Assembly (NCBI GenBank): GCA_963774075.1
Contig: CAVZDP010000001.1
Span: 108,572 to 172,571, forward strand
Source: an uncultured Solirubrobacterales bacterium
Lineage (GTDB): Bacteria > Actinomycetota > Thermoleophilia > Solirubrobacterales > JBBDJG01
Reading direction: 5' to 3'
Length of the DNA stretch: 64,000 bases
Part shown: positions 3,115 to 47,193 of the stretch, one piece after another
Numbering within the stretch: position 1 is the first letter of the stretch
Layout: each line of letters begins with the position of its first letter
The notes under the pieces: generated by a model
Database searches by the model: none
The model's input: only the letters and a program-made list of their open reading frames with translations
Told to the model about the DNA's origin: nothing
Program-made: the position numbers and the translations under genes

Positions 3115-10733
<7,619 letters not shown>

Positions 10734-13450: not shown

Positions 13451-13530
13451 CGGAATACCAGGCCGGCTCCGCCGGGCACCTCAGTCACGTGAGCCGGCTG
13501 CGCCCCCTTCGGGGGCTACGCCGTCTCTCG
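13451..13530 (-). repeat. Single copy of the 81-nt GTAG-hairpin element (minus orientation)
   Basis: The reverse complement reads CGAGAGA-CGGC-GTAG-CCCCC-gaa-GGGGGC-GCA-GCCG-GCTCACGTGACTGAGGTGC-CCGGC-gga-GCCGG-CCTGGTATTCCG. This is colinear with the units at 47200-47472. Confidence 0.85.
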
Positions 13531-21914: not shown

Positions 21915-22184
21915 ATGGGTCGTTCCACCAAGAAGGGACCGTGGGCCGAGGAGCGCTTGATGCAACGCATCCAGCGGATGAACGAAGCCGGTGAGAAGCG
22001 AATCATCAACACCTGGTCGCGCGCTTCGACCGTCTTCCCCGAGATGGTTGGCCACACGATCGGGGTTCACGACGGGCGCCGCCACGTGCCCGTCTTCGTC
22101 ACCGAGTCGATGGTCGGTCACAAGCTCGGGGAGTTCGCTCCCACGCGGACCTTCCGCGGACACTCCGGCGGCGACAGGAGGTAG
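21915..22184 (+). CDS. rpsS: 30S ribosomal protein S19
   Basis: 89 aa, [10 protein letters not shown]....[28 protein letters not shown]. Confidence 0.97.
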
Positions 22185-22189
22185 CAGCC

Positions 22190-22891
22190 ATGGCGGTGGA
22201 GCGCAAGAAGGACGACGAGCCAAAGACCGGCGGGCAGGCGGCCGGCTCGAAGGGCAAGGCCGGGGCCTCGGACCAGGCCGCGAAGGCCGAGGAGGGCGCA
22301 AAGGCCTCCAAGGCCTCGCCCAAGGCACGCCAGCCAAAGCCCGAGGCCAAGCAGGCTGGCGGCAAGGCGAAGTCCGAAGCCGCGACTCCCGCGCGCCCGC
22401 GAGCAGCACGCAAGCCTCGGGCGAGCGCCAAGAAAGCGCCCGCGACTGCCACGCAGCCATCAGGCGAGGGGGCCGAGCCGTCCAAGCGCGGAGCTCGTCC
22501 CCGCCGCCGCGCGACGCCCGCGGCCGAAACGCCACGGCGCGCTCCCGAGAGGCCGGTCGTGCGAGCGCAGGCCAAGTACGTCCGCTCCTCCGCGCGCAAG
22601 GCGAGGCTCGTAATCGAGCACATCCGCGGCAAGTCCGTCGTCGAGGCCCAAGCGGTGTTGCGCCACACGCCGCGTGCGGTTGCCCGCGACGTCGAGAAGC
22701 TGCTGAAGTCGGCGATCGCCAACGCCGAGAACAATCACGAGCTGGTGGGCGACGACCTCCGGGTCAAGGAGGTCTACGCAGACGAGGGCCCGACCTTGAA
22801 GCGCTTTCGCCCGCGCGCTCAGGGGCGCGCCACGCGCATCCGGAAGCGCACCAGCCATCTGACTGTAACCCTCACCCCGAAGGAGGACTAG
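22190..22891 (+). CDS. rplV: 50S ribosomal protein L22 with ~115-aa basic Ala/Lys/Pro-rich N-terminal extension
   Basis: ATG after AGGAGG. The C-terminal ~115 aa are canonical L22 (..[27 protein letters not shown]...P....V.KLL.SA.ANAE.N..). The N-terminus is [39 protein letters not shown]... Confidence 0.93.
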
Positions 22892-23053
22892 TGCCCCATC
22901 TCGGAGATCACACCCGTTCTGGCTCGCTGCAATCCTTCGCGGCTGCTGCGTCCTCGGTCGCTCAAATAGTGCATGACTATTCGGGCTCCCTGCGTCCTTG
23001 CCCCGCTCGGCTTTCGCGGCCAGAAGCGGGCGTGACCCCCGGGATGGGGCACT
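22890..23053 (+). repeat. 164-bp intergenic element with 26-bp imperfect terminal inverted repeats (MITE-like / long-range stem), family member A
   Basis: Left arm AGTGCCCCATCTCGGAGATCACACCC (22890-22915) matches the reverse complement of the right arm (23028-23053) at 22 of 26 positions. The internal core GCGTCCTCGGTCGC..hairpin..CGGGCTCCCTGCGTCCTTGCC is shared with 31668-31719. Confidence 0.65.
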
Positions 23054-23054
23054 G

Positions 23055-23786
23055 ATGGGCCAAAAGGTGCACCCCGAGGGACTTCGCGTCGGCTACATCC
23101 ATGACTGGAAGTCCAACTGGTTCAACGAGCGGGACTTCGCCGACTACCTGCACGAGGATCTCGAGATCCGCAAGCACATCGAGAACAAGCTCAGCCACGC
23201 CGGACTGTCCTCGATCACGATCCGCAAGGACAAGAACGAGGTGACGGTGGACATCCACACCGCTCGCCCGGGGATCGTGATCGGCAAGTCGGGCGCCGAA
23301 GTGGACGCGCTGCGCCGCGAGCTGCACAAGATGACCAGCAAGCAGGTGCGCGTGAACATCCTCGAGGTGAAGCGCCCGGAGCTCGACGCCAAGCTCGTCG
23401 CTCAGTCGATCGCCGAGCAGCTCCAGAACCGCGTCGCCTTCCGGCGCGCGATGAAGCGCGCGATCACGTCGGCGATGCGCTCCGGCGCGGTCGGCGTGAG
23501 GGTGCAGGTCTCCGGCCGGCTCGGCGGCTCGGAGATGGCCCGCACGGAGTTCTATTCCGAAGGGCGGGTCCCGCTGCACACGCTGCGTGCGGACATCGAC
23601 TACGGCCTGCACGAGGCGCGCACGACATTTGGGCGCATTGGCGTCAAGTGCTGGATCAACAAGGGCGAGGTCATGCCCGTCGGCTACGGGCGCCAAGACG
23701 GCGAGGCAGTTCCGCCGCCGCCACCACAGCGCCCACAGCGCCCGCAGGGCGACCGTGGCGGCCGCCGGGGGCAGAGGGGTAGGTAG
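23055..23786 (+). CDS. rpsC: 30S ribosomal protein S3 (Pro/Arg/Gly-rich C-terminal tail)
   Basis: ATG at 23055 gives [23 protein letters not shown]... The track start at 22998 lies inside the repeat element. Confidence 0.96.
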
Positions 23787-23791
23787 GCGCC

Positions 23792-24205
23792 ATGCTGATG
23801 CCTAAGCGGGTAAAGCACCGCAAGCAGCATCGGGGCCGCAGAGCCGGCTACTCGAAGGGCGGCACGACCGTCCAGTTCGGCGAGTACGGCCTGAAGGCCC
23901 TCGACGCCGGCTGGATCACGAACCGCCAGATCGAGGCCGCGCGTGTCGCGATGACGCGAAAGATCAAGCGTGGGGGAAAGGTCTGGATCAACATCTTTCC
24001 CGACAAGCCGGTGACGAAGAAGCCGGCCGAAACGCGCATGGGCTCGGGCAAGGGATCACCCGAGTCCTGGGTGGCGGTCGTGAAGCCCGGGCGCGTGATG
24101 TTCGAGCTCGCCGGTGTGCCCGAGCAGCTGGCCCGCGAGGCGATGCGCCTGGCCGGCCACAAGTTGCCTATCCGGACCAAGATCGTGCTGCGCGAGGAAC
24201 AGTAA
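23792..24205 (+). CDS. rplP: 50S ribosomal protein L16
   Basis: 137 aa, [17 protein letters not shown].....FGEYGL.A. Confidence 0.97.
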
Positions 24206-24266
24206 TGGCCGCTTCACGGACAGCTAAAGGCACGAGAGTCGGCCTCGAGGCCGACTACCGGAACAG

Positions 24267-24479
24267 ATGAAGACCAAAGAAGTGAGAAACCTCGACAACG
24301 ACCAGCTCGTGGACAAGGTGCGCGAGTTCAGGGCGGAGCTGTTCAACCTCCGCTTCCAGAACTCGACCGGTGAGCTCGAGAACACAGGGCGCCTGACCGA
24401 GGCTCGGCGCTCGCTCGCTCGCACGCTCACGATCGCGAAAGAGCGGGGGATCGACGTCGACGCCGCCCTGCGGCGTTAG
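24267..24479 (+). CDS. rpmC: 50S ribosomal protein L29
   Basis: 70 aa, ..EL...L..LRFQ..TGQLEN.. pattern ([20 protein letters not shown]). Confidence 0.93.
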
Positions 24480-24494
24480 GAACCGGAGAGAGCG

Positions 24495-25202
24495 ATGCAG
24501 GACGAAGAGAAGCAAGAGCAGCCCGAAGAGCAGCAGCCCGCAGCCGACGAGGCCGCGCCGGAAGCCCCGGCGGCGGAGGAGGCTGCGGTGGAACAGCCCG
24601 CCGGCGAAGAGCCCGCGGCAGAGGAGTCTGCGGCGGAAGAGCCCGCGGCAGAGGAGCCTGCGGCAGAGGAGCCTGCGGCAGAGGAGCCTGCGGCAGAGGC
24701 TCCCGCCAAGCCCCCCGCTGCAGCTCCCGCCGAGGACGAGGCGGAGCCGCTCACGCCCAAGCAGCAGCGCAAGCTCGCCCGGTCCCGCGCGAATGGAACC
24801 GCTGCGCCGACGCGCTCGGCGGACGAGCGCGCCCGCGAGCGCTCCGAGCGGCGCACCTCCAAGGCCGCGGGACGCACCCGCTGGCGGCGCAAGCAACGCG
24901 AGCGCAGCCACGCCGAGCCGTCCCAGCCTCGTCCACAGAAGGAGCCTGCGGCCAAGGGCGCGCCCAAGGTCAGGCGCGGAGTGGTCGTCTCCAGCAAGCC
25001 CGACAAAACCATCACGGTCCGGACCGACGCCGTTCGCCCGCATCCGCGCTACGGCAAGGTCATCCGAAACACCAACACGCTTCATGCCCACGACGAGAAG
25101 AACCAGGCAAACGAGGGCGACGTGGTGCGGGTCGTCGAGACGCGGCCGCTCTCACGTACCAAGCGCTGGCTGCTGCTCGAGATCGTGGAGAGAGCCCGGT
25201 GA
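24495..25202 (+). CDS. rpsQ: 30S ribosomal protein S17 with ~150-aa N-terminal extension (acidic PAAEE repeats then basic segment)
   Basis: The C-terminal ~85 aa are canonical S17 (..[19 protein letters not shown]...HP.YGK.I....TLHAHDE.N.A.EGD.V...ETRPLS.TKRW.L). One uninterrupted 235-aa ORF, ATG after GGAGAG. Confidence 0.9.
24600..24704 (+). repeat. Seven tandem 15-bp coding repeats (GCGGCAGAGGAGCCT-like) inside rpsQ
   Basis: Units start at 24600, 24615, 24630, 24645, 24660, 24675 and 24690. Three central units are identical. Each encodes an (A/P)AEE(P/S) pentapeptide. Confidence 0.85.
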
Positions 25203-25567
25203 TCCAGGCGGAAAGTCGCATCAAGGTTGCCGACAACACCGGAGCGCGGGAGATCCTTTGCATACGCGTCAAGGGCGGCTCCCACCGCCGCTACGCGGGC
25301 GTCGGCGACGTCATCGTCGGCACGGTGAAGAGCGCGGCGCCGCAGGGCTCGGTGCGCAAAGGGGAGATCGTGCAGGCCGTAGTCGTACGCACCCGTAAGG
25401 AGCTCGGGCGCAAGGACGGCACCTACATCGCCTTCGACGAGAACGCGGCCGTGCTGATCGACAATGCGAACAACCCTCGCGGCACGCGCATCTTCGGCCC
25501 TGTCGCCCGAGAGCTTCGCGAGCGCAACTACATGAAGATCGTGTCCCTCGCTCCCGAGGTGCTCTAG
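25199..25567 (+). CDS. rplN: 50S ribosomal protein L14
   Basis: GTG start overlapping the rpsQ stop; [24 protein letters not shown].. Confidence 0.97.
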
Positions 25568-25572
25568 TACTA

Positions 25573-25905
25573 GTGGCTACTAGGATCCGCCGCGACGACA
25601 TCGTGCAGGTGATGGCCGGCAAGGACGCGGGCAAGACCGGCAAGGTGCTGCGTGTCGACCCGAAGAAGAACCGTCTCTATGTCGAGGGCCTCAACATCGT
25701 CAAGCGCCACCAGCGACCGCGCTCGCTCAAGCAGACGCAGCAGCGCGGCCAGGTCGGAGGGGTGGTCGAGAAAGAGGCTCCGATCCACGTCTCGAACGTG
25801 ATGCTCGTCGACCCCAAGGACAACACTCCGACCAGGCTCGGCGTGGACCGCTCGGGAGGCAAGCGCGTGCGCGTGACCAAGCGTTCCGGCACGAGGATCG
25901 AGTGA
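25573..25905 (+). CDS. rplX: 50S ribosomal protein L24
   Basis: GTG start within CTAGTGGCT; ..[24 protein letters not shown].. Confidence 0.95.
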
Positions 25906-26708
25906 TGGCAGCGCGTCTCAAGGACAGGTATCAGAAGGAAATACGGCCGCAGCTGTTCGAGCGGTTCCGCTACAAGAGCCCGATGCAGATACCGCGGGTG
26001 GAGAAGATCACGCTCAACATGGGTGTGGGAGAGGCAAAGCTAAATACCGCGATGCTCGATGCCGCGAGCGAGCAGCTCGCCACGATCTCGGGCCAGCGCC
26101 CGCAGGTGCGCCGGGCGCGCAAGTCGATCGCCAACTTCAAGCTGCGCGAGGGCATGCCGGTCGGCGTGAGGGTGACGCTGCGAGGAGAGCGGATGTACGA
26201 GATGCTCGATCGCCTCCAGTCGATCGCCATCCCGCGGATTCGCGACTTTCGCGGCCTCAGCCCACGCTCCTTCGACGGGCGCGGCAACTACTCGCTCGGC
26301 ATTCGCGAGCAAATCATCTTCCCGGAGGTCGACTACGACTCGATCGACCAGGTGCGAGGCCTCGACGTCGCGATCACAACGTCCGCCAAGACCGACGAGG
26401 AGGCCTTCGAGCTGCTGCAATTGCTCGGCATGCCCTTCCGGGCCGAGGGATCGGAGCGCCGCGCCGGCACCGCGACGGAGGAGCCTGAGGCCGAGGATAC
26501 TGAGGAGCCGCCCGCAGCCGAGGAGCCCGTGGTGGAGGAGCCGCCGGCCGAGGAGCCCACCGCCGAAGAGCCGCCGGCAGAAGAGCCGCCGGCAGAAGAG
26601 CAGCCGGCCGAAGAGCCAGCCGCCGAGGCAGCAGACGAGAAGCCAGCGGCCGAGGCCGATTCCACACCAGACGAAACCGAAGAGGAAGGACAGGAGGAGC
26701 AGAGCTGA
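25905..26708 (+). CDS. rplE: 50S ribosomal protein L5 with ~85-aa acidic C-terminal extension
   Basis: ATG at 25905 overlaps the rplX stop (GTG at 25902 is an alternative). Canonical L5 runs to ~aa 180 (..[23 protein letters not shown]..). The tail is [42 protein letters not shown]... Confidence 0.94.
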
Positions 26709-26711
26709 GAG

Positions 26712-26897
26712 ATGGCTAAGACGTCCCAGATCGTGCGCCAGCAGCGCGGCAGCAAGTACAAGACCCGCAACTACCACCGATGCCGCCGCTGCGGACGCGC
26801 CCGCGCCTACTACCGCAAGTTCGGTCTCTGCCGGATCTGCCTGCGCGAGATCGCGCACGAGGGCATGATCCCCGGCATGACGAAGTCCTCTTGGTGA
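26712..26897 (+). CDS. rpsN: 30S ribosomal protein S14, zinc-binding type Z
   Basis: 61 aa with CRRCGR...CRIC (CxxC..CxxC), ending KSSW. Confidence 0.95.
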
Positions 26898-26913
26898 GCT
26901 TGCCGACGCGGAT

Positions 26914-27339
26914 ATGACCGACCCAGTCGCAGACTTCCTGACCCGTGTCCGGAACGCCGTAACGGCCGACCAGGACCACGTCGTGATCCCGGCCTCGGGG
27001 CTCAACCGCGAGCTCGCTCGGCTGCTCGTCGAGGAGGGCTACGTGGTGGGCTTCACGACGGACCGGCGTCGCCCGACCGGCCGCGGCAAGCACAAGGTGC
27101 GCTCCGAGTTCGACGTGCTCGTCGTCGAGCTCAAGTACACCGAGGATCGCGAGCCCGTGATCAGCGGACTGAAGCGGGTCTCCAAGCCCGGCCGGCGCGA
27201 ATACGTGACGGCCGACGAGCTTCCCCGCGTCCTGGGGGGCATGGGTACGGCAATCGTGACCACGTCCAAGGGCGTGATGACCGCCACCACCGCCCGCCGG
27301 GAGCACGTGGGCGGCGAAGTGCTCGCGTACGTGTGGTAA
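26914..27339 (+). CDS. rpsH: 30S ribosomal protein S8
   Basis: 141 aa, [15 protein letters not shown].......V.IP.S.....A..L..EGY; ends ..GGEVLAYVW. Confidence 0.96.
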
Positions 27340-27872
27340 TGAGTCGAATCGGCAGACTTCCCATTCAGGTACCCAGCGGCGTCGACGTCGATATCGAGCC
27401 TGGGCTCGTTCGCGTCAAGGGCCCCAAGGGCGCGCTGTCGCAGACCGTCTCGCGCGACATGAGCTTCGAGCGCGAGGACTCCCAGCTCGTCGTCAAGCGG
27501 CCTACCGACCGCAAGGACCACCGCGCGCTGCACGGCCTCACTCGCACGCTCGTCTACAACATGGTCGTCGGCGTCACAGAGGGGTTCGAGAAGCGGCTCG
27601 AGATCCAGGGCGTCGGTTATCGAGCGCAGCTCAAGGGCAACACCCTGGAGCTCGCGCTCGGCTACTCGCACCCGGTGAGGATCGATGCGCCGGAGGGAAT
27701 CGAGTTCGAAGTGCCGTTGCCGACGCAGGTCGTCGTGCGGGGCATCGACAAGCAGGCCGTTGGCGAGGTTGCCGCACGCGTCCGCAAGATGCGCCCGCCC
27801 GAGCCCTACAAGGGCAAGGGCGTTCGCTATGCGGGCGAGCACGTCGCACGCAAGGTCGGCAAGAGGGCGTGA
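27339..27872 (+). CDS. rplF: 50S ribosomal protein L6
   Basis: ATG at 27339 shares its A with the rpsH TAA; [17 protein letters not shown].. Confidence 0.95.
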
Positions 27873-27885
27873 GCGGAGCATCGGA

Positions 27886-28245
27886 GTGACCACTGCGCTG
27901 CTCGACAAGCAAAGGCGCAAGACGCGCCGCCGCCGGCGCATCCGCGGCAAGGTGGCCGGAAGCAGGGAGCGGCCGCGCCTGTCGGTGCACCGATCGAACC
28001 GCGGAATCTTCGCTCAGCTCGTCGACGACGAACGTGGCGTGACGATCGCCTCGGCGAGCTGGATCGAGCCCGATCTGCGCGCGCTGCCCGCGATGGAGCA
28101 GGCGAAGCGCACGGGGGAGCTACTGGGCGAGCGAGCTCGCACCGCCGGCATCGAGACCTGCGTGTTCGACCGGGGCGGGTACAAGTACCACGGCCGCGTC
28201 AAGGCGCTGGCCGAGGGAGCGCGAAGTGGCGGACTTCGCTTCTAG
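27886..28245 (+). CDS. rplR: 50S ribosomal protein L18
   Basis: GTG at 27886, 8 nt after GGAG; ..[11 protein letters not shown]...RPRLSV.RSN..I.AQ..DD..G.T.ASAS; ends ..[22 protein letters not shown]. The track start at 27685 lies inside rplF. Confidence 0.93.
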
Positions 28246-28294
28246 TACCCTCATCCGAGTCGTGAAAGCCGGTACGAAAAGGCTAAGACGCTAG

Positions 28295-28900
28295 ATGGCA
28301 CGCAGAGATTCGATCAACCCGCAGGGTCTCGACCTCCAGGAGCGCGTGGTCACGATCAACCGTGTCGCCAAGGTCGTCAAGGGTGGGCGTCGCTTCTCGT
28401 TTACGGCGCTGGTCGTTGTCGGCGATGAGGATCGGCTCGTCGGAATCGGCTACGGCAAGGCGAACGAGGTTCCGCTCGCCATCCAGAAAGCTGTCGAGCG
28501 CGCCAAGAAGAGCCTGTTCCGCGCGCCGAAGCACGGGACGACGATCACGCATCAGGTCCTTGGCCGCTACGGCTCCGCCAAGGTGCTCCTCAAGCCCGCG
28601 TCCGAGGGTACCGGCGTCATCGCCGGAGGGCCCGTGCGCGCCGTGCTCGAGTTGGCGGGCATTCGCGACGTGCTCTCCAAGAGCCTCGGCAGCCAGAACC
28701 CGATCAACCTGGTGAAGGCGACGATGGCCGGGCTGCAGTCACTCAAGCGGCCCGAGCGCGTGGCGGAGCTACGAGGCAAGAGCATCTCGCACGTGCTGGG
28801 GATCGAGCGCGGCGAGGAGGCTGCGGAGGACACCGGCGAGGCGGAGGCGGCAGCCCCTGAGCCGCCGGAGCCTGCTCCGATCGGCGCACAGGAGGCCTAG
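28295..28900 (+). CDS. rpsE: 30S ribosomal protein S5 with acidic C-terminal tail
   Basis: 201 aa, ..[39 protein letters not shown].. Confidence 0.96.
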
Positions 28901-28932
28901 TGGCCCTTCCCGGAACCGAGAAGGACCACTAG
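28897..28932 (+). other. Stop/start junction hairpin (CTAGTGGCCC ... GGACCACTAG) between rpsE and rpmD
   Basis: Arms 28897-28906 and 28923-32 pair at 9 of 10 positions. The rpsE TAG (28898-28900) lies in the left arm. CGAGAAGGAC (28917-28926) spans the loop and right arm. The rpmD GTG lies 3 nt after the right arm. Confidence 0.6.
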
Positions 28933-28934
28933 CA

Positions 28935-29141
28935 GTGGCGGCCGAGAGCGTCCGCATCACCCAGCGAAAGAGCGCCAACGGGACGAACCCCGCCCAGCGC
29001 GAGACCCTTCGCTCGCTCGGCCTCGGCCGCATCGGCCGCACGGTCGAGCGCCCGGACAGTCCCCAGCTTCGGGGAATGATCCGCGTGGTCGAGCATCTGG
29101 TGGACGTCGATGCGAACTCCGCCGGAGGCAAGCGTGGCTGA
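28935..29141 (+). CDS. rpmD: 50S ribosomal protein L30
   Basis: GTG start, 68 aa, ..VRITQRKS.....P.QR.TLRSLGL.RIG..V......P...GMI..V.HLV. Confidence 0.92.
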   Translation: MAAESVRITQRKSANGTNPAQRETLRSLGLGRIGRTVERPDSPQLRGMIRVVEHLVDVDANSAGGKRG

Positions 29142-29640
29142 GCGCGTGGGCCTTCACTCGATCGCGCCTCCCAGAGGGGCGCGCAAGCCGCGCAAGCGCA
29201 TCGGCCGAGGCGAGGGGTCCGGCTACGGCAAGACCTCGGGCCGCGGCTCGAAGGGCGCCGGCGCGCGCTCGGGCAGCAAGCGCAAGGCCGGCTACGAGGG
29301 CGGCCAGAACCCGCTCCACATGAGGATGCGGAAGCTGCGCGGGCCGCACATGAAGAAGTCGATGCCGTTCGAGCCTTTCCGGACTCACAGCCAGCCCGTC
29401 AACCTCTCGGACCTCAACCGCTTCGAGGACAACGCCGAAGTGACGCCGGCGACCCTGCGGGAGAAGGGCCTCGCCAAGCGCAGGCGCACACCGGTCAAGA
29501 TCCTCGCGCGGGGCGAGCTCGAGCGAAAAGGGCTCGCGGTCTCCGCCCAGGGCTTCAGCGCCGCTGCGCGTGAGAAGATCGAGGCGGCGGGAGGCTCCTG
29601 CACCGTGGTGAAGCCGGACAGCCGAGGAGACGGATCGTGA
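29134..29640 (+). CDS. rplO: 50S ribosomal protein L15
   Basis: GTG at 29134, 5 nt after GGAGG; ..KRIGRGEGSGYGKTSGRGSKG.. The track start at 29110 is an upstream alternative. Confidence 0.93.
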   Translation: MAERVGLHSIAPPRGARKPRKRIGRGEGSGYGKTSGRGSKGAGARSGSKRKAGYEGGQNPLHMRMRKLRGPHMKKSMPFEPFRTHSQPVNLSDLNRFEDNAEVTPATLREKGLAKRRRTPVKILARGELERKGLAVSAQGFSAAAREKIEAAGGSCTVVKPDSRGDGS

Positions 29641-30905
29641 TCGCGACCATCGCAAATGCTTTCAGCGTTCCGGAGATCCGACGCAAGCTGCTCTTCACCG
29701 CCGCTATCCTGGCGCTCTACAGGATGGGCGCCTACATCCCGGTGCCGTCGATCAACGTCGACGCGATCAACGACGTCGAGGACACCTTCAGCGGCTCGAA
29801 CATCCTCGGCTTCCTGAACCTCTTCTCGGGCGGCGGCCTCCAACGGCTCGCGATCTTCGCACTGGGGATCATGCCCTACATCACGGCCTCGATCATCCTG
29901 CAGCTCCTGACCGTGGTCGTGCCTACGCTCGAGCGCCTTCAGAAGGAAGGGGAGGCCGGGCAGCAGAAGATCACGCAGTACACCCGCTACCTGACCGTCG
30001 GGCTCGCAGCGGGGCAGTCGGTCGGCTACGTGTACTTCTTCCGCTCGATCGGCAGCGGCGGCACGGACGTGATCGGCCAGATCACCTTCAGCAAGATGTT
30101 CCTGATCGTCGTGACTCTGACCGCCGGAACCACGCTCCTGATGTGGATGGGAGAGCTGATTACGCAGCGAGGCATCGGCAACGGGATCTCGCTGATGATC
30201 TTCGCCTCGATCGTGGCGTCACTGCCGAACGGCCTGTCGGCCTGGTGGACGAACCCGGACCAGGTGTTCGTCGTGATGATGCCGTTCATGGCGCTCGCCG
30301 TGATCATCGGCATCGTGTTCATCCAGGAAGGGCAGCGCAGGATCCCCGTTCAGTACGCGAAGCGCGTCATCGGCCGCCGGATGACGGCGGGCGGCTCGAC
30401 CTACCTGCCGCTGCGGGTCAACATGGCCGGGGTGATCCCGGTCATCTTCGCCGCCTCGCTGATGGCCTTCCCGCCGACGATCGGGCAGCTGAGCCAGGCC
30501 GACTGGGCTCAGGACATCGCGGCCTTCTTCAACCCGAACGGCTGGGCGTTCGTCGCCGGCGAGTGCTTCTTCATCCTGATCTTCACCTACTTCTATACGG
30601 CGGTGACGTTCAACCCGGTGGACCAGGCCGACAACCTCAAGAAGTACGGGGGGTTCATCCCGGGGGTGAGACCCGGCCGGCCAACGGCCGAGTATCTCGA
30701 TCGCATCCTCGCTCGGCTCACCTTCCCGGGAGCCCTCTTCCTGGCCAGCGTGGCTGCGCTGCCGACGATACTCATAAGCCAGACGAGCGCCAACTTCTTC
30801 TTCGGCGGCACATCCCTGCTGATCGTGATCGGGGTCGCCCTCGACACGGTCAAGCAGCTCGAGGCGCAGCTCATGATGCGCAACTACGAAGGGTTCCTGA
30901 AGTAG
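29637..30905 (+). CDS. secY: Preprotein translocase subunit SecY
   Basis: GTGA overlap with rplO; a 422-aa 10-TM protein; ..IFALGIMPYITASII.QLL.. Confidence 0.97.
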   Translation: MIATIANAFSVPEIRRKLLFTAAILALYRMGAYIPVPSINVDAINDVEDTFSGSNILGFLNLFSGGGLQRLAIFALGIMPYITASIILQLLTVVVPTLERLQKEGEAGQQKITQYTRYLTVGLAAGQSVGYVYFFRSIGSGGTDVIGQITFSKMFLIVVTLTAGTTLLMWMGELITQRGIGNGISLMIFASIVASLPNGLSAWWTNPDQVFVVMMPFMALAVIIGIVFIQEGQRRIPVQYAKRVIGRRMTAGGSTYLPLRVNMAGVIPVIFAASLMAFPPTIGQLSQADWAQDIAAFFNPNGWAFVAGECFFILIFTYFYTAVTFNPVDQADNLKKYGGFIPGVRPGRPTAEYLDRILARLTFPGALFLASVAALPTILISQTSANFFFGGTSLLIVIGVALDTVKQLEAQLMMRNYEGFLK

Positions 30906-30937
30906 CCCCCATCCGGGCCCGGCGAGACGCTTTCGAG

Positions 30938-31612
30938 ATGCCGGAGTTGAATCTCGTCCTGCTCGGCCCGCCAGGCGCAGGCAAGGGCACTCAGGCGAGG
31001 CGCCTCGTGGACGACTTCGGCCTGCCCTATATCGCGACCGGGGACATGCTGCGGGAAGAGGTGCGCCAGGAGACCGAGCTCGGCGGCAAGGCAAAGGCGT
31101 ACATGGAGCGGGGCGACCTCGTCCCCGACGATCTCATCATCGAGATGATCATGCGGCGGCTCGCGCAGCCGGACACGGCGAACGGCTTCATCCTGGACGG
31201 GTTTCCGCGCACTCAGGGACAGGCCGAGGCGCTGGACGAGGCGCTCGAGAGGTTGGGCCGCTCACTGACGGCGGCCGTGCTCGTCGACGTGAGCGACGAC
31301 GAGGTCACGCGCCGCCTCTCCGGGCGCCGCGTGTGCGTAAAGAACCAGCACAACTTCCACGTCGACTTCGACCCTCCCAAGCGACGTGACCGCTGCGACC
31401 TGGACGGCAGCCGGCTGGTCATCCGCGACGACGACCGCCCGGAGCTCGTACGGCACCGGCTCGAGGAGTACCACGCCAAGACCGAGCCTCTGATCGGGTA
31501 CTACGAGGACCGCAGCATCCTGCGCCGCATCGACGGCACGCGCCCCGCGAGCGAGGTGAGCGACCAGGTCCGCGCCACCCTCGCCGCGGCCCGCCTGGAG
31601 GGACAGGTCTAG
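30938..31612 (+). CDS. adk: Adenylate kinase
   Basis: ATG at 30938; MPELNLVLLGPPGAGKGTQA..L......IATGDMLR..; ..ILDGFPRT..QAEAL. Confidence 0.96.
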   Translation: MPELNLVLLGPPGAGKGTQARRLVDDFGLPYIATGDMLREEVRQETELGGKAKAYMERGDLVPDDLIIEMIMRRLAQPDTANGFILDGFPRTQGQAEALDEALERLGRSLTAAVLVDVSDDEVTRRLSGRRVCVKNQHNFHVDFDPPKRRDRCDLDGSRLVIRDDDRPELVRHRLEEYHAKTEPLIGYYEDRSILRRIDGTRPASEVSDQVRATLAAARLEGQV

Positions 31613-31774
31613 TGGCCTGTCCCATGACGTTCGACCTGAAATGGCGGCTTCGGAGCGCCGCCATGCGGCGTCCTCGGTCGCCCGATAGCGCTGCTATCGG
31701 GGCTCCCTGCGTCCTTGCCTGGCGCCGTCCGAACTTCGCCATTTCCTGGCCAACGTTACGAGACAGACCACTAG
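31609..31774 (+). repeat. 166-bp intergenic element with 21-bp imperfect terminal inverted repeats (MITE-like / long-range stem), family member B
   Basis: CTAGTGGCCTGTCCCATGACG (31609-31629) matches the reverse complement of 31754-31774 at 17 of 21 positions. It contains the core GCGTCCTCGGTCGC, a 9-bp hairpin (CCCGATAGC gct GCTATCGGG), and GGCTCCCTGCGTCCTTGCC. Confidence 0.65.
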
Positions 31775-31805
31775 TGGTCCACCCGTTTTGCGAGAAGGAC
31801 CGTCA

Positions 31806-32579
31806 GTGATCATCCGCAAGACGCCGGAGGAGATCGAGGCGATCGCCGCCGCCGGCGAGGTCGTCGCGCGCTGCCTCACGATGCTGAGTGCGAGCGCCCG
31901 CGCCGGCGCCACGACAGCGGAGCTCGACCGCGCCGCCGAGAAGTTCATCCGCAGCCAGGGGGGCGAGCCGGCGTTCAAGGGCTATCGCGGCTTTCCGGCC
32001 TCGATCTGTACCTCGCCCAACTCGATGGTTGTGCACGGCATCCCGGGGCCCTACACGCTCGAACGTGGAGACATCCTCTCGGTCGACGTCGGCGTGGAGC
32101 TCGACGGCTGGATCGCCGACGCGGCCCTCACGGTGGCCGTGCGCCCCCTCAGCCCCGTGGCGACCAAGCTGCTGCGGGCCACCCGCCAGGCGCTGGAGGC
32201 CGGCGTCGAGCACTGCCGCCCGGGACAGCGGCTCGGCGATGTCTCGAGCGCCGTACAGGAGCGCGTGGAGCAGGACGGCTTTTCGGTCATCCGCTCGCTC
32301 GTCGGCCACGGCATCGGGCGCCAGATGCACGAAGACCCCCAGATCCCCAATTTCGGGGAGCCCGGCAAGGGCCCCCTGATCGAGGAGGGGATGGTCTTCT
32401 GCATCGAGCCGATGGTCTGCGTCGGCGGCCACAGCGTCCGGATGGGCGATGACAACTGGGCTATCTACTCAGAGGACGGCTCTCTGACGGCCCATTTCGA
32501 GCACACCGTGGCGGTCACCGCGGACGGCCCCCGAGTGCTCACCCCATGGCACCTGAAGGCCGAGAAGGCCGCCGCCTGA
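31806..32579 (+). CDS. map: Methionine aminopeptidase type I
   Basis: GTG at 31806, 5 nt after CGAGAAGGAC, gives (M)IIRKTPEEIEAIAAAGEVVA..; ..VHGIPG...L..GDI...D.G....G...D.A.T; ..HGIG...HE.P. Confidence 0.95.
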   Translation: MIIRKTPEEIEAIAAAGEVVARCLTMLSASARAGATTAELDRAAEKFIRSQGGEPAFKGYRGFPASICTSPNSMVVHGIPGPYTLERGDILSVDVGVELDGWIADAALTVAVRPLSPVATKLLRATRQALEAGVEHCRPGQRLGDVSSAVQERVEQDGFSVIRSLVGHGIGRQMHEDPQIPNFGEPGKGPLIEEGMVFCIEPMVCVGGHSVRMGDDNWAIYSEDGSLTAHFEHTVAVTADGPRVLTPWHLKAEKAAA

Positions 32580-32739
32580 GCCCTGGAGCCCTCTGCTAGC
32601 ATTTTCGAGACGTCTGCCGGGTCGCACGGCCCGGGCAGGCTGCGTTAGGCTCTGCGGTTCGTTTCCTGGGACCGCGGAAGCGATCTCTCGATAGCGATTC
32701 CGGCAGCCGCGTGGCCGCCGCGAGAAGGACTGGAGAAAC

Positions 32740-32853
32740 GTGAAGGTCAGAGCATCGGTGAAGCCAATGTGTGAGAAGTGCAAGGTGATCCGCCGCCGCG
32801 GATCCGTGCTCGTGATCTGCAAGAACCCCCGCCACAAGCAGAGGCAGGGCTGA
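32740..32853 (+). CDS. rpmJ: 50S ribosomal protein L36
   Basis: Below the ORF-track size cutoff. Own translation from GTG 32740: (M)[36 protein letters not shown]. Confidence 0.95.
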
Positions 32854-32915
32854 ATATTGGGCAGCTTCGCTGACACCTACGGTCCAGAACGCCGGCCTAT
32901 GGCCGTCGCCTGAAC

Positions 32916-33299
32916 ATGGCTCGTATCGCCGGAGTAAACATCCCACTCAACAAGCGAGTAGAGGTCGGCCTCACCTACGTGTACGGGCTCGGCCCCTCTC
33001 AGGCCAGGAAGCTCCTCGAGAAGACCAAGGTCGACCCGAACACCTACGTGAAGGACCTCACCGAGGACGAGGTCGTGCGTCTGCGCGAGGCGATCGACGA
33101 AGACCTGATGGTCGAGGGCGATCTGCGCCGGGAACGCTCTCAGGACGTCAAGCGCCTGACCGAAATTGGCGCCTACCGCGGTATGCGCCATCGTCGCGGC
33201 CTGCCGGTGCGCGGCCAGCGGACGAAGACGAACGCTCGCGGGCGCAAGGGTCCGCGGCGGGGCCAGGTCGCGCAGAAGAAGAGGGTCGGTAAGCACTAA
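32916..33299 (+). CDS. rpsM: 30S ribosomal protein S13
   Basis: 127 aa, [23 protein letters not shown]. Confidence 0.97.
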
Positions 33300-33344
33300 G
33301 TGCGCTCGGCAAGTCGCTACCGCGCCCATAGGCAGGAGCACTAG

Positions 33345-33746
33345 GTGCCTCCAGCACGCGGTAAGAAGGGCAGCCGTGCCCGGCGAAGGGTGCGCAAGAA
33401 CGTTCCGTTCGGCCAGGCCCACATCAAGACGTCGTTCAACAACACGATCGTCACCCTCACCGATAGGGAGGGGAACGTGATCGCGTGGGAGTCGGCCGGC
33501 GGAGCCGGTTTCAAGGGCTCGCGCAAGTCGACCCCGTTCGCGGCGCAGGTGACTGCGGAGTCCGCCGCGCGCAAGGGCATGGAGCACGGCCTGCAGAAGG
33601 TCGAGATTTTCGTCAAGGGCCCAGGATCGGGCCGCGAGACCGCGATCCGGTCGCTTCAGGCGACCGGGCTCGAGATCGCCGGCGTCAAGGACGTTACGCC
33701 TCAGGCTCACAACGGTTGCCGGCCGCGCAAGCGCCGTCGCGTCTGA
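33345..33746 (+). CDS. rpsK: 30S ribosomal protein S11
   Basis: GTG start after GGCAGGAG; ..[16 protein letters not shown]...[17 protein letters not shown].. Confidence 0.97.
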
Positions 33747-33758
33747 GGGGTTCGGGAG

Positions 33759-34379
33759 TTGGCCAGAGACGTCGGACCGCAGTGCAAGCAGTGCCGCCGG
33801 GAAGGCTTGAAGCTCTTCCTCAAAGGCGAGCGCTGCATGACGGACAAGTGCGCCGTAGAGCGACGGCCATACCCGCCTGGCCAGCACGGCCGTGGGCGAG
33901 TGCGCCAGTCTGAGTACCGCCAGCAGCTTCGCGAGAAACAGCGCGCGCGCCGCTATTACCAGGTGCTCGAGAAGCAGTTCCGCAACTACTACAAGAAGGC
34001 CAGCCGCCAGCCCGGCGTCACCGGAGAGAATCTCCTGAGGCTGCTCGAGCGCCGTCTCGACAACGTGCTCGTGCGGCTCGGCTTCGCGGCGTCACGGCGG
34101 CAGGCGCGCCAGCTCGTGAGCCACGGGCAGTTCGCGGTCAACGGCCGCAGAGTCAACATCCCCTCTTACCAGGTGCGCCCCGGCGACGTCATCTCCGTCA
34201 GGGAGGGCGCCAAAGGCGCCGGCGTGATCCGCGGCGCCACCGAGCTGATCGCCACGGTGCCGCCATGGCTCCAGGCCGATCACGACTCGTTGACTGCGAA
34301 GGTGCTTCGCCTACCCGAGCGAGAAGAGATCAGCGTTCCGGTTCAGGAGCAGCTGATCGTGGAGCTCTACTCCAAGTGA
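33759..34379 (+). CDS. rpsD: 30S ribosomal protein S4
   Basis: TTG start; 206 aa; ..[17 protein letters not shown]...KCA.ERR.YPPGQHG.. Confidence 0.96.
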
Positions 34380-34470
34380 GTGAGCTCGCGACACCCTCTC
34401 CACCCGCTCGGTCCTAACTCAACCCGATCGCGGCCTCCACCGCGACCGGCTCCCCGGAGGAACTACGCAA

Positions 34471-35430
34471 GTGTTGGATTTCCAGGTTCCCAAGATCACA
34501 GCAGAGAACGTCGAGGACAACCGCGGCTCGTTCACGGTCGAGCCGCTAGACCGCGGGTTCGGCTACACGTTCGGCAACTCATTGCGGCGCGTGTTGCTGT
34601 CCTCGCTGGCAGGCGCCGCCGTGACGTCCATCCGGATCGAGGGCGTCGCGCACGAGTTCTCGACCATCTCCGGCGTCAAGGAGGACGTCACCGACATCGT
34701 GCTCAATCTGAAGGACATCGTCTGCCGCATGCACGGCGAGGCGGACGAGATCGAGGCTCCGCTCGTCATCACCGGCCCCGGCGAGGTGAAGGCGAAGGAC
34801 ATCGACCTTCCGTCGGGGGTCGAGATCCTCAACCCCGGCGCCCACATAGCCACACTCGAGAAGAAGGCGAAGCTCGAGATGTACCTCACGATCGGCCGCG
34901 GCCGCGGCTACCGCCCGGCCGAGGGCAACAAGTCGCCCGATCACCCCATCGGGGTGATCCCGATCGACTCGATCTTCTCGCCCGTCCGGCGTGTCTCCTA
35001 CGAGGTCGCGCAGGCCCGCGTCGGCCAGCGCACCGACTTCGACAAGCTGACGCTCGACATCGAGACCGACGGATCCGTTGACCCGCAGGCGGCGCTTCGC
35101 GAGGGGGCGGAGGTGCTGATCAAGAGCCTCTCGATCTTCACCGATGCCAGCCGCATCGAGAGCCTGAGCCTGCCTGCCGACGGTGCCGCGGAGCTGGCGG
35201 CGGTCGCGACCAGCCCGGTCGCGGACGGCATGGACGAGATCCTGATCGAGGAGCTCGAGCTCGGCGTTCGCTCATACAACTGCCTCAAGCGCGCCGGCAT
35301 CCAGACCATCGGCGATCTTGTCCAGAAGTCGGAAGGCGAGCTGAGCGCGATCCCCAACTTCGGCCGCAAGAGCATCGACGAGGTGAAGGAAACGCTGCGA
35401 GTGCGCGGGCTCGGCCTGCGCGACGACTAG
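34471..35430 (+). CDS. rpoA: DNA-directed RNA polymerase subunit alpha
   Basis: GTG start; 319 aa; ..G.F.VEPL.RGFGYT.GN.LRR.LLSSL.GAAVT...I.GV.HEFS.I.GV.ED.. Confidence 0.97.
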   Translation: MLDFQVPKITAENVEDNRGSFTVEPLDRGFGYTFGNSLRRVLLSSLAGAAVTSIRIEGVAHEFSTISGVKEDVTDIVLNLKDIVCRMHGEADEIEAPLVITGPGEVKAKDIDLPSGVEILNPGAHIATLEKKAKLEMYLTIGRGRGYRPAEGNKSPDHPIGVIPIDSIFSPVRRVSYEVAQARVGQRTDFDKLTLDIETDGSVDPQAALREGAEVLIKSLSIFTDASRIESLSLPADGAAELAAVATSPVADGMDEILIEELELGVRSYNCLKRAGIQTIGDLVQKSEGELSAIPNFGRKSIDEVKETLRVRGLGLRDD

Positions 35431-35456
35431 CGACCCGGGTGCGTAGGATCCGGCTC

Positions 35457-35810
35457 ATGCGCCACCGCAAGAAGCGAAACAAGCTCTCGCGCGACAGCGG
35501 ACACCGCAAGGCGCTCTTCATGAACCTCTGCACGGAGATCGTTCAGCACGAGCGCGTGAAGACGACTGAGGCGAAGGCGAAGGCCGTCAAGCCGGAAGTC
35601 GAGCGCCTGATCACGCTCGCCAAGCGGGGCGACCTGCATGCGCGACGGCAGGCGCTCGCCGCGCTGAACCAGAACAAGTTCACGGTCCACAAGCTGTTCG
35701 AGGAGATTGCGCCGCGCTATGCGGAGCGCCCCGGCGGCTACACGCGCATCCTGAAGCTCGGGCCTCGGCGCTCCGACGCGACCGAGATGGTCTTCATCGA
35801 GCTAGTGTGA
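35457..35810 (+). CDS. rplQ: 50S ribosomal protein L17
   Basis: ATG at 35457 gives MRHRKKRNKLSRDSGHRKAL.. (canonical L17 N-terminus). The track start at 35439 is an alternative. Confidence 0.95.
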   Translation: MRHRKKRNKLSRDSGHRKALFMNLCTEIVQHERVKTTEAKAKAVKPEVERLITLAKRGDLHARRQALAALNQNKFTVHKLFEEIAPRYAERPGGYTRILKLGPRRSDATEMVFIELV

Positions 35811-35811
35811 C

Positions 35812-36054
35812 GAGAGGCCGCGTAGGCGCCGAAGGCGCCGCAGCGGACTCACGAGACTTTAGGTGTCCGGCGAAGCCGGCTAGATATTCCTTGAGAGGCC
35901 GCGTAGGCGCCGAAGGCGCCGCAGCGGACTCACGAGACTTTAGGTGTCCGGCGAAGCCGGCTAGATATTCCTTGAGAGGCCGCGTAGGCGCCGAAGGCGC
36001 CGCAGCGGACTCACGAGACTTTAGGTGTCCGGCGAAGCCGGCTAGATATTCCTC
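35812..36054 (+). repeat. Array of three head-to-tail 81-bp GTAG-hairpin units
   Basis: Units start at 35812, 35893 and 35974 and are essentially identical, with no spacers. The array sits between the rplQ stop (35810) and the truA start (36076). Confidence 0.95.
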
Positions 36055-36075
36055 GTTGCCCGCCAAGCCATCGGG

Positions 36076-36855
36076 GTGACGGCCTGCAAGCTCATCCTTG
36101 AATACGACGGGCGTGCGTTCGCCGGCTGGGCGGCGCAGCCGGATCTGCGGACGGTGGAGGGCGAGTTGAGCAGGGCGCTCGCCACCGCTCTCGGGAGCGA
36201 GGTGCGGCTGTCGGTCGCCGGACGTACCGACGCCGGCGTGCATGCCTGGGGCCAGGTGGCGAGTTTCGCTCTCCCGCCGAACGCACCGGGGCCGCCGCGG
36301 CTCGTTGCCTCGCTGAACGGGTTGCTGCCGCACGACGTGGCGGCGGTGAGAGCCGAGACCGTGCCGGAGGGATTCGACGCTCGCACGGACGCGCTCTCGC
36401 GCACGTACTGCTACCGCCTGCTCGCCCGCAGCGCTCCAAGCCCCTTCGAGGCCGGCCGGGCGCTCTGGGTGCAATCGCCGGTGGAGGAGGACGTTCTGTC
36501 GCAGTGCGCCGCGGCCCTCGTCGGCAAGCACGACTTCACGGCCTTCACGCCCACCGACACCGATCACGTGCGCTTCGAGCGCGACGTGATGATGACGGAG
36601 TGGCGGCGTACCGGAGACATCTTGGAGTTCTGGATCGAAGCCGACACGTTCATGCGGCACATGGTCAGGAGTCTCGTGGGGACCATGCTCGCTGCGGCTT
36701 CGGGCCGCCTCTCCGTCAGCGACTTCACCCGGCTTCTGGAGGGCGCGCCGCGCAGCGCCGCCGGCCAGACGGCGTCGCCGCATGGCCTCTATCTCGCGTC
36801 GGTCCGCTACCGACCGCCGTCAGACTGGATGCGAAGCCCGCGACTAACATCTTGA
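36076..36855 (+). CDS. truA: tRNA pseudouridine(38-40) synthase TruA
   Basis: GTG start; ..ILEYDGRAFAGWA.QP...TVEGEL..AL......V.L.VAGRTDAGVHA.GQV.. Confidence 0.93.
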   Translation: MTACKLILEYDGRAFAGWAAQPDLRTVEGELSRALATALGSEVRLSVAGRTDAGVHAWGQVASFALPPNAPGPPRLVASLNGLLPHDVAAVRAETVPEGFDARTDALSRTYCYRLLARSAPSPFEAGRALWVQSPVEEDVLSQCAAALVGKHDFTAFTPTDTDHVRFERDVMMTEWRRTGDILEFWIEADTFMRHMVRSLVGTMLAAASGRLSVSDFTRLLEGAPRSAAGQTASPHGLYLASVRYRPPSDWMRSPRLTS

Positions 36856-39848: not shown

Positions 39849-40280
39849 GACTTCGAGTTCCCTTATCCGGACGGACAGTTCGACTTCGCGCTCGTAAACT
39901 CGGTGTTCACGCACATGCTTCCCGACGACGCCGAGCGCTACCTGGCCGAGATTCGCCGCGTGCTCAAGCCGGGCGGAAGGTTCGTCGCGAGCTACTTCCT
40001 CCTGAACTCGGAATCGCTGTCGCTAGTGGCGGGGGACCGGGACAAGCGCAAAGACCCGGCGTGGAACGCCCAGGACGCTCGCTTCGACGAGGACCTGGGC
40101 GGCTACCGGGTCGGCAACCGAAAGTCACCCGAGGCGGTCGTCGCCTACGACGAGCCGATGGTGCTCGACTTCTACGAGGACCTCGGCCTTGCCGTCGAGG
40201 AGCCGATCCACTAGGGGCGCTGGTGCGGCCGTGACGCCGACGTCCCCGGCTGGCAGGACCTGATACTCGCTTATCGCTGA
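39849..40280 (+). pseudogene. Class I SAM-dependent methyltransferase remnant (5'-truncated, internal TAG)
   Basis: The frame opens only at 39822 and begins mid-domain (DFEFPYPDGQFDFALVNSVFTHM..LKPGGRF..), so the GxGxG SAM motif I is absent. An in-frame TAG at 40212-40214 is followed by GRWCGRDADVPGWQDLILAYR*, which looks like the native C-terminus. Confidence 0.6.
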
Positions 40281-40289
40281 CGGGTTTAC

Positions 40290-40321
40290 ATCGAGCCGGC
40301 TTCGCCGGACACCTAAAGTCC
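40290..40321 (-). repeat. Partial copy (3' half) of the 81-nt element, minus orientation
   Basis: ATCGAGCCGGCTTCGCCGGACACCTAAAGTCC is the reverse complement of GGACTTTAGGTGTCCGGCGAAGCCGGCTCGAT (compare 61855-61886). It overlaps the stop codon of the 40313..42118 gene. Confidence 0.75.
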
Positions 40322-47119: not shown

Positions 47120-47193
47120 CGGGGCGTGGCGCAGTCTGGTAGCGCGCACCGTTCGGGTCGGTGAGGTCCCCGGTTCAAATCCGGGCGCCCCGA
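47120..47193 (+). tRNA. tRNA-Pro (anticodon CGG)
   Basis: Manual cloverleaf: acceptor CGGGGCG/CGCCCCG, D arm GCGC-AGTCTGGTA-GCGC, anticodon arm CACCG-TTCGGGT-CGGTG, variable AGGTC, T arm CCCGG-TTCAAAT-CCGGG, discriminator A. CCA is not encoded. Confidence 0.93.

Follow-up and report, generated by a model that had tools for sequence, protein, structure and literature searches.

Hairpin elements with bridging open reading frames between ribosomal-protein genes of an uncultured Solirubrobacterales bacterium

Results

Spacers of the ribosomal-protein cluster

We analyzed a 64-kb stretch of DNA from an uncultured bacterium (contig CAVZDP010000001.1, positions 108,572 to 172,571 of the forward strand), which is called the window below and is numbered from its first letter. 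It has a G+C content of 67% and contains the S10-spc-alpha ribosomal-protein cluster; protein-guided scans placed it in Solirubrobacterales (class Thermoleophilia). The identities of rpsE, rpmD, secY, adk, map, rpmJ, rplN, and rplX were confirmed by Pfam; rpsE lies at 28295-28900, the rpmD GTG start at 28935, the adk stop codon at 31610-31612, and the GTG starts of map and rpmJ at 31806 and 32740, respectively. The subject of this work is a set of hairpin-forming spacers between genes of this cluster. An original prediction, made from the letters of the window, had pointed to CTAGTGG strings at gene junctions and to the 10-mer CGAGAAGGAC ahead of three GTG starts, and had read them as a small portable stop-hairpin-Shine-Dalgarno (SD)-start module. 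Orthologous junctions were compared in 160 related loci (2.2 Mb; numbered with the prefix L) obtained from protein-guided scans, and the nearest sequences in this set are 79% identical to the window in RpsE and 84% in SecY.

The rpsE|rpmD spacer is 34 nt long, the adk|map spacer 193 nt, and the rplV|rpsC spacer 163 nt. At rpsE|rpmD the two genes overlap (GTGA, ATGA, or TGATG) in nearly all of ~130 related loci, L090 reading TAAccggggATG (…caggagTAAccggggATG), and at adk|map the closest relatives L090 and L081 (SecY 83-84% identical) have GTGA. Because the relatives mostly show a stop/start overlap at these two junctions, the window spacers read as insertions; at rplV|rpsC, removal of 22889-23052 would restore a typical GAC|TGATGG overlap. 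Judged from these comparisons, all three spacers look like lineage-specific insertions. An Rfam 15 scan of the whole window returned tRNA only. For the two long spacers, neither the gathering score nor the looser limit of E <= 10 produced an Rfam 15 match other than a chance miRNA (E = 8), and none to a ribosomal-protein leader. No promoter-like (sigma-70) site was found in 22000-36500, and the terminator-like sites in the same interval numbered 8 versus a background of 8.2, with none at a junction, so promoters and terminators do not explain the spacers.

Long hairpin elements

The adk|map spacer folds into a single long imperfect hairpin (-106 kcal/mol, z = -4.75) in which CUAGUGG at 31609 pairs with CCACUAG at 31768, and BLAST found its center again in the rplV|rpsC spacer as well as in many of the related loci. 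A covariance model (CM), R1, detected exactly two copies in the window, both on the + strand, the next match scoring 19 bits. Copy 1 makes up the whole rplV|rpsC spacer (22889-23054; 69 bits, E = 3e-16; minimum free energy -89.5 kcal/mol), with the feet UAGUGCCCCAUC and GAUGGGGCACUG and the core at 22949-23000. Copy 2 lies in the adk|map spacer (31609-31774; 76 bits, E = 3e-18), with the feet CTAGTGGCCTGTC and GACAGACCACTAG and the core at 31669-31717. A local hairpin, GGGACAGG-tctagtgg-CCTGTCCC (31600-31623, + strand), which is found in the centroid structure and holds the adk stop codon in its loop, competes with the long outer stem of copy 2. The elements are ~165 nt in the window and ~100-190 nt in the family as a whole, and they share an invariant core consisting of CGTCCTCGGTCG, a variable hairpin, and CTCCCTGCGTCCTTG, with two GCGUCCU stretches. 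The outer stems that flank the core differ in sequence between copies, and their pairing is always kept. The CTAGTG/CCACTAG strings at 22888, 31609, and 31768 are feet of larger inverted-repeat elements that recur at different junctions across genomes, in agreement with the suspected connection to larger terminal-inverted-repeat (TIR) elements.

RNAalifold on a MAFFT alignment gave a weak consensus only, because the variable outer stems were misaligned, and was replaced by a hand-drawn structure on a 20-sequence alignment, in which pair counts were compared with 500 shuffles. Seventy percent of the cells were paired, compared with 53% after shuffling, and the covariation score was 0.43 versus 0.17, a value as high as the observed one being reached in none of the 500 shuffles. 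Pairing fell sharply when the 3' partners were slid by a few columns.

In the relatives, R1 gave 45 matches in 32 of the 160 loci, at non-orthologous junctions; 42 of the 45 (any score) fall inside the span of the ribosomal-protein cluster, where copy density is ~3x higher than outside. The occupied junctions include rplF|rplR, rplB|rpsS, rpmJ|rpsM, rpsK|rpsD, rpsM|rpsK, rpsC|rplP, rplD|rplW, rplW|rplB, rpsH|rplF, rplV|rpsC, rpoA|rplQ, and secY|adk, and amount to more than 10 junction types in total. Few or no matches were present in the sampled 20-kb loci of OY969768.1, OY970203.1, and NZ_CP098502.1. All strong copies (at least 50 bits; 29 of 29, window copies included) are sense-oriented. 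The locus L122 holds two near-identical full-length copies at different junctions, which argues for recent mobility. Terminal sequences differ between copies, the window pair included; they are identical only within L122 and similar between a window mini-module (see below) and L146, and the ends always pair. With many copies at non-orthologous sites, and with ORFs (open reading frames) that have no Pfam match or homologues, the long inserts can be regarded as a family of hairpin elements of Solirubrobacterales that resembles miniature inverted-repeat transposable elements (MITEs) and combines an invariant core with variable, co-varying outer stems. This family appears to be undescribed.

A weaker subfamily (25-43 bits, ~150 nt; …GCAAAYCGGCGCATATCGGGGTCCTCGGTCGG…CCTCCCTGCGTCCCC…), mostly without a bridging ORF of the kind described below, is found in the sense orientation at secY|adk (L106 11282-11403, L122 8858-8979, and L102 11290-11411) and in the antisense orientation at rplR|rpsE (L108 8417-8535 and L053 9862-9980) and adk|map (L102 12126-12247). 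One true copy of the main family (65 bits) was detected at 577-677 of L162 (IMG/VR contig IMGVR_UViG_3300026300_000009, classed as viral), between a divergently oriented thioesterase-like gene and a + strand ORF, and the family is thus not confined to ribosomal-protein operons. Other matches in viral contigs were discarded, one being a chance match inside a large phage gene and two failing the covariance model.

The small module had also been proposed to be the empty-site form of the larger elements. CTAG…CTAG bounds the window copies, which is also what an extension of the stem would give, CTAG being palindromic; the two near-identical L122 copies have no clear target duplication, and neither an empty site nor a target-site duplication or excision footprint can be shown. 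Direct repeats that resemble the junctions are present in L060, in L062, and in two short spacers of the window, namely rpsM|rpsK (CACTAAGTGC at 33294-33303 and CACTAGGTGC at 33339-33348) and rplP|rpmC (GGAACAGTAATG at 24196-24207 and GGAACAGATGA at 24260-24270). In these two window spacers, a duplication of the junction seems to have accompanied the origin of the spacer.

Mini hairpin modules

The rpsE|rpmD spacer folds into a mini hairpin (28897-28932, + strand; -21 kcal/mol, z = -2.7) with the 5' arm CTAGTGGCCCTTC at 28897-28909 and the 3' arm GAAGGACCACTAG at 28920-28932, in which UAGUGG pairs with CCACUA and CCUUC with GAAGG. As had been described, the rpsE stop codon (TAG, 28898-28900) lies in the left arm; the rpmD GTG begins 2 nt past the right arm. 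The copy of CGAGAAGGAC at 28917-28926 is part of the hairpin, and since its SD core (GAAGGA) is paired with the CCUUC placed just 3' of the stop codon, the downstream SD is predicted to be masked. A second mini-module forms the tail of the adk|map spacer (31771-31805, + strand; -16.2 kcal/mol, z = -2.5): here a CTAG-TGGTCC…GGACC hairpin at 31775-31801 includes the 10-mer at 31791-31800 and is followed, 5 nt after the 10-mer, by the map GTG. The two ~40-nt mini-modules agree at 27 of ~41 positions, with exact 7- and 11-nt blocks in register, and can be summarized as CTAGTGGYCC-N-CGAGAAGGACC-N-CAGTG, the spacing from GTGGYC to the 10-mer being 11 nt in both. The original interpretation is supported in part: a portable stop-hairpin-SD-start module exists, one paralogous copy forming the rpsE|rpmD spacer and another the 3' tail of the adk|map spacer.

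The feet of the mini hairpin match those of a full-length element at rpsK|rpsD of L146 (CTAGTGCTCCTTCTCG…CGAGAAGGAGCACT) at 13 of 16 and 13 of 14 positions, and L146 is one of only 2 among 678 junctions of the relatives that have CCTTC after the stop codon plus GAAGG before the start. This foot match makes the suggested link between the small module and the larger elements plausible. We infer that the mini-modules may be core-less derivatives or relatives of the long elements; if so, an SD in the 3' foot and an anti-SD-like 5' foot would be part of the element design.

CTAGTG strings at stop and start codons

CTAGTGG occurs eight times on the two strands of the window (25570+, 28897+, 28926-, 31609+, 31768-, 31771+, 40023+, and 40208-), compared with 2.6 ± 1.5 in dinucleotide shuffles, of which 0 of 100 reach eight. 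The eight matches represent fewer independent events: 28897 and 28926 are the two arms of one hairpin, 31768 and 31771 belong to one palindrome (GACCACTAGTGGTC, 31766-31779), and the others are the adk stop (31609), the rplX start (25570), and two sites in an unrelated methyltransferase-like ORF, one inside its coding sequence (40023) and one at its stop (40208). The CTAGTGG…CCACTAG pair at 40023/40208 was considered as a fourth hairpin element and rejected, being coding sequence with a fold z of -1.45. The earlier observation is partly borne out, two of the eight matches being unrelated to any junction. The junction strings listed in the original prediction are all present, except that the one at rplX starts at 25570 instead of 25569 and the one at 22888 reads CTAGTGC, a match to CTAGTG only.

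CTAGTG lies over the stop codon at 3 of the ~29 cluster junctions in the window (rplV, rpsE, and adk) and at 23 of 2270 orthologous junctions (1%) in the relatives, where TAG usage is equal (35.5%). We concluded that the enrichment at stops is real and roughly tenfold, on small numbers. In CTAGTG the TAG ends the upstream gene and its G begins an overlapping GTG; CCACTAG is the complementary 3' foot of the hairpin, and the stop and the next start thus meet at the base of the stem. At rplV (CTAGTG, 22888-22893, + strand) the TAG at 22889-22891 overlaps a GTG at 22891-22893, within the 5' foot of long copy 1. The rplN|rplX junction (CTAGTACTAGTGGCTACTAGG, 25564-25584, + strand; rplN TAG 25565-25567, rplX GTG 25573) gave no significant local fold, and its CTAGTA|CTAGTG appears to have arisen by 6-nt tandem duplication from the TAGTG overlap that L021, L051, and L063 have. 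As a general signature of the module, CTAGTGG did not hold up: the 5' cassettes among the copies comprise ATGA, GTGA, TAGTG, TAATG, TAGGTG, and TGAnATG, and element copies other than those discussed use ATGA, TGAnATG, TAATG, or TAGGTG. Because of this variation, CTAGTG is to be seen as the preferred form of this genome and not as a family signature.

The 10-mer CGAGAAGGAC

The 10-mer is found seven times in the window, all on the + strand, versus 0.3 expected. The three copies reported earlier (28917, 31791, and 32721) were confirmed at 8, 5, and 9 nt upstream of GTG starts, and their GAAGGA core ends 9, 6, and 10 nt ahead of these starts, within the range of an SD sequence. The actinobacterial 16S rRNA 3' tail carries the anti-SD CCUCCUUUCU, to which the core would be complementary; the window itself contains no rRNA gene. 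By position and sequence, the 10-mer at these three junctions is a putative SD sequence. The four others (3357, 3711, 6791, and 7319; span 3357-7328, + strand) lie within the rpoB/rpoC coding sequences as xxC-GAG-AAG-GAC (Glu-Lys-Asp) and are unrelated to junctions; the raw excess is thus partly a codon-string effect. In the relatives (2.2 Mb), all 13 + strand copies look coding by sequence context (3 of them in mapped genes), and the 30 nt ahead of mapped starts contain no copy. With up to 1 mismatch allowed, only 9 of 866 junctions have the string within 25 nt of a start. Its threefold exact occurrence at SD positions in the window is unusual for the clade.

The rpmJ copy (32721-32730, + strand, upstream of the GTG at 32740) lies outside the module. 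It had been counted as part of it, and it turned out to be an ordinary SD of the lineage in a conserved orthologous leader, where the relatives have gagaagggga, cgagggac, or cgaaaggga; its exact identity with the other two copies is probably a coincidence. The rpmJ leader also contains a hairpin, GGTTCGTTTCCTGGGACC (32656-32673), that is kept across the clade, in most related loci (consensus ~GGCCCGAYTCCTGGGGCC), has no Rfam match, and may be a leader of the rpmJ/alpha-operon genes. Between map and rpmJ there is no infA gene.

Relay ORFs across the inserts

A feature overlooked in the earlier reading is that the GTG within CTAGTG opens a short ORF that bridges the spacer, for which we use the term relay ORF. 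At rplV|rpsC it has 54 codons (22891-23055, + strand), its GTG overlapping the rplV stop (TAGTG) and its TGA the rpsC ATG (TGATG). At adk|map it has 65 codons (31612-31809, + strand), begins on the adk stop (TAGTG), and ends with a TGA that overlaps the map GTG at 31806 (GTGA). At rpsE|rpmD it is a mini-ORF of 10 codons (28900-28932, + strand; GTG-GCC-CTT-CCC-GGA-ACC-GAG-AAG-GAC-CAC-TAG), which opens within the TAGTG of the rpsE stop and terminates 2 nt short of the rpmD GTG at 28935. In both relay frames that hold the 10-mer it is read as (C)-GAG-AAG-GAC. Relay ORFs that overlap the flanking genes at both ends are also present in other window spacers, such as rplP|rpmC (TAATG…ATGA, 21 codons); rpsM|rpsK has one of 14 codons (CACTAAGTGC…CACTAGGTGC), and rpsN|rpsH and rplF|rplR carry relay ORFs as well.

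We scored a relay ORF when its start lay at -1 to +12 from the upstream stop and its stop at -6 to +8 from the downstream start. Such an ORF is present in 17 of the 19 element-bearing junctions of the relatives with defined flanks and in both long copies of the window. The number expected among the 19 is 3.1 in a full dinucleotide shuffle and 9.9 ± ~2 when the spacer ends are kept fixed. In a frame test that is independent of composition, 23 of 25 copies were compatible at the true spacer length, compared with ~7 of 25 when the length was shifted by 1 or 2 nt. Relay ORFs are not a property of all long spacers, since 22 of 196 long spacers without the element have one. A conserved peptide was also rejected, because the copies differ in the frame in which they read the invariant core (12, 7, and 4 copies in the three frames); what seems to be conserved is the openness of the frame. 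The 65-codon relay ORF of adk|map had no Pfam match, and a protein search found no homologue, so that protein searches with the relay ORF offer no route to an unbiased census of copies.

Other repeats and features of the window

A separate repeat family with an 81-nt unit is present at 35812-36053, 47201-47442, 61814-61893, 13470-13528 (inverted), and 40290-40324 (inverted). Three perfect tandem copies directly follow rplQ, three tandem copies directly follow a tRNA gene (47120-47193), and single copies occur in both orientations. Each unit holds two small GC hairpins, GGCGCCGAAGGCGCC and CCGGCGAAGCCGG, and this family is probably what had been called the larger TIR elements. Pro/Glu/Ala-rich low-complexity extensions, encoded by tandem repeats of 15-nt period (24513-24729, 26472-26658, 2390-2476, and 1122-1433), are present N-terminally in the rpsQ ORF (24495-25202) and C-terminally in rplE (25902-26708) as well as in upstream genes; the rpsE tail is similar to these extensions. 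The ORF at 39903-40214, which contains the two unrelated CTAGTGG matches, is the C-terminal half of an S-adenosylmethionine-dependent methyltransferase-like sequence and has an inverted copy of the 81-nt unit as its neighbor. With stop codons located just upstream, this ORF may represent a truncated gene or a pseudogene. At adk|map, many relatives (e.g., L025, L036, L039, L055, L101, L108, and L113) have a -10-like TAnnnT box (cTAAGCT or TAGCGT) 6-8 nt upstream of the map start, which hints at frequent expression of map from leaderless transcripts in the clade.

Discussion

Proposed function of the hairpin modules

We consider it reasonably likely that the recurrent strings belong to hairpin modules which were inserted between cistrons and maintain the translational coupling of neighboring ribosomal-protein genes. 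In the proposed mechanism, the upstream gene would end at a TAG whose overlapping GTG opens the relay ORF through the insert, and the relay ORF would end on or near the downstream start (TGATG, GTGA, or a TAG followed by GTG 2 nt later). A ribosome terminating at the upstream stop could melt the base of the stem and unmask the downstream site; alternatively, it could re-initiate at the overlapping GTG, translate the relay ORF, and terminate at the next start. Either route would preserve coupling across the insert, and without upstream translation the downstream SD and start would remain masked. The architecture, the predicted folding, the covariation, the non-orthologous distribution, and the frame statistics are what the analysis shows; translation of the relay ORFs, and a dependence of coupling on them, are inferred.

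Several observations weigh against this interpretation. The argument for relay-ORF translation is drawn from sequence statistics, and the element is A-poor, so that sense frames are often open by composition and 52% of the shuffles with the ends kept give a relay ORF. The weaker subfamily mostly lacks relay ORFs and is antisense at three junctions, and one true copy (L162) lies between divergent genes outside any ribosomal-protein operon. The invariant core is given no role in the model. In addition, the relatives compared reach at most 84% SecY identity, which limits what may be said about the ages of the insertions and their exact ends.

The elements might instead be purely selfish and MITE-like, the hairpin being simply an inverted repeat, the downstream genes using their own SD, and the bridging ORFs arising as by-products of A-poor composition and of the stop and start codons of a split junction. 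The non-orthologous positions, the near-identical L122 copies, the antisense subfamily, the copy outside operons, and the 52% of ends-kept shuffles with a relay ORF all agree with this explanation; it is nonetheless unlikely in view of the frame test (23 of 25 versus ~7 of 25), the 17 relay ORFs among 19 junctions where 9.9 ± ~2 are expected even with the ends kept, the sense orientation of 29 of 29 strong copies, and the lack of an SD between the 3' foot and the start in several copies (window rplV|rpsC, L121, and L122). Processing or stability sites, for example RNase III substrates, would account for long imperfect stems with a conserved internal loop: cleavage at the stem base would leave a near-leaderless downstream mRNA, with the core as the recognition element. 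The 3' foot frequently ends at the start codon itself, and the -10-like boxes 6-8 nt upstream of the map start in relatives suggest leaderless starts in the clade. We give this possibility little weight, however, as it leaves unexplained both the conservation of the relay frame and the stop-start cassettes at the two ends.

An even smaller chance is assigned to the core being an operator at which a regulatory protein, for instance a ribosomal protein or a different RNA-binding factor, would act, with the elements as feedback sites that spread through operons. The two invariant GCGUCCU stretches do lie on either side of a co-varying hairpin, much like a pseudo-symmetric internal loop, and copies are ~3x denser within the cluster span; yet their positions are non-orthologous, just 20% of the related loci hold a copy, one copy lies outside ribosomal-protein genes, and no Rfam ribosomal-protein leader was matched. 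Chance combined with ordinary signals, i.e., C-preceded TAG stops, GTG starts, and a common SD word, is disfavored and hardly credible. TAG does make up 35% of the stops in the clade, the 10-mer occurs four times as codons and once as the ordinary SD of rpmJ, and two of eight CTAGTGG matches are unrelated to junctions. Chance would not account for CTAGTG at 3 of 29 stops versus 1% in relatives, for the absence in the relatives of any 10-mer within 30 nt upstream of a mapped start, for two 40-nt modules that agree at 27 of 41 positions in register, or for hairpins with z values of -2.5 to -4.75.

Comparison with known elements

Small non-autonomous inverted-repeat elements that are co-transcribed as hairpins are known from several bacteria, including Correia/NEMIS in Neisseria, ERIC/IRU in enterobacteria, and RUP/BOX in pneumococci. 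They insert intergenically, also within operons, their RNA hairpins can affect the expression of flanking genes, and they have conserved terminal inverted repeats and defined target duplications. To our knowledge, a bridging ORF is not a described feature of these families. The present elements resemble transcribed hairpin MITEs such as Correia and ERIC in being intercistronic inverted repeats, but differ in having an invariant center and variable co-varying stems without clearly conserved termini or a demonstrable target duplication.

The closest precedent in architecture is the mycobacterial MIRU, which, as summarized in a 2025 review, are inserted at start codons and have an internal ORF coupled to the gene (Supply et al., 1997; PMC12548453). 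According to that summary, MIRUs too are apparently mobile actinobacterial repeats between the cistrons of operons, the ends of the internal ORF overlap the flanking stop and start, and their insertion is proposed to be tolerated because coupled translation persists (PMC12548453). The present copies likewise lie in the sense orientation between co-oriented genes of operons (29 of 29 copies of at least 50 bits on the + strand). MIRUs are 40-100 bp, often form tandem arrays, and in the account given there are not described as long hairpins. The present elements, from the class Thermoleophilia, are single hairpins of ~100-190 nt (or minis of ~40 nt) with a conserved core and an SD-masking outer stem, and no tandem arrays were found at these junctions, every copy being a single hairpin. 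Classical translational coupling by unmasking of the ribosome-binding site or by termination-reinitiation (PMC12548453) is similar in that the upstream stop lies in or near a stem that sequesters the downstream SD and start, and in that ATGA- and TGATG-type overlaps are present. It differs in that the coupling proposed here would be relayed over 34-193 nt by an intervening non-coding-like ORF, not by direct overlap.

Implications

If the relay ORFs are translated, they would provide a natural way to keep strict coupling over a structured insert of 30-190 nt, and this in the operons with the highest expression and dosage sensitivity in the cell. The MIRU concept would then reach beyond mycobacteria to hairpin elements of a further actinobacterial class, and the elements may illustrate how mobile DNA can settle in essential operons without polarity. 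Their apparent design rules (stop-start overlap, open frame, and SD in the 3' arm) may be of use for synthetic operons, and in genome annotation such spacers would be better treated as repeat elements with relay ORFs than as empty intergenic DNA or hypothetical proteins. Somewhat more tentatively, at a little under even odds in our estimation, Solirubrobacterales may carry an undescribed family of mobile RNA hairpins adapted to essential coupled operons, in which terminal stop-start cassettes, a relay frame that is open without encoding anything meaningful, and an outer stem that masks the downstream SD would allow ribosomes to be handed across the insert without a polar effect, and the core with its two GCGUCCU stretches might be recognized by the mobility machinery or a host factor.

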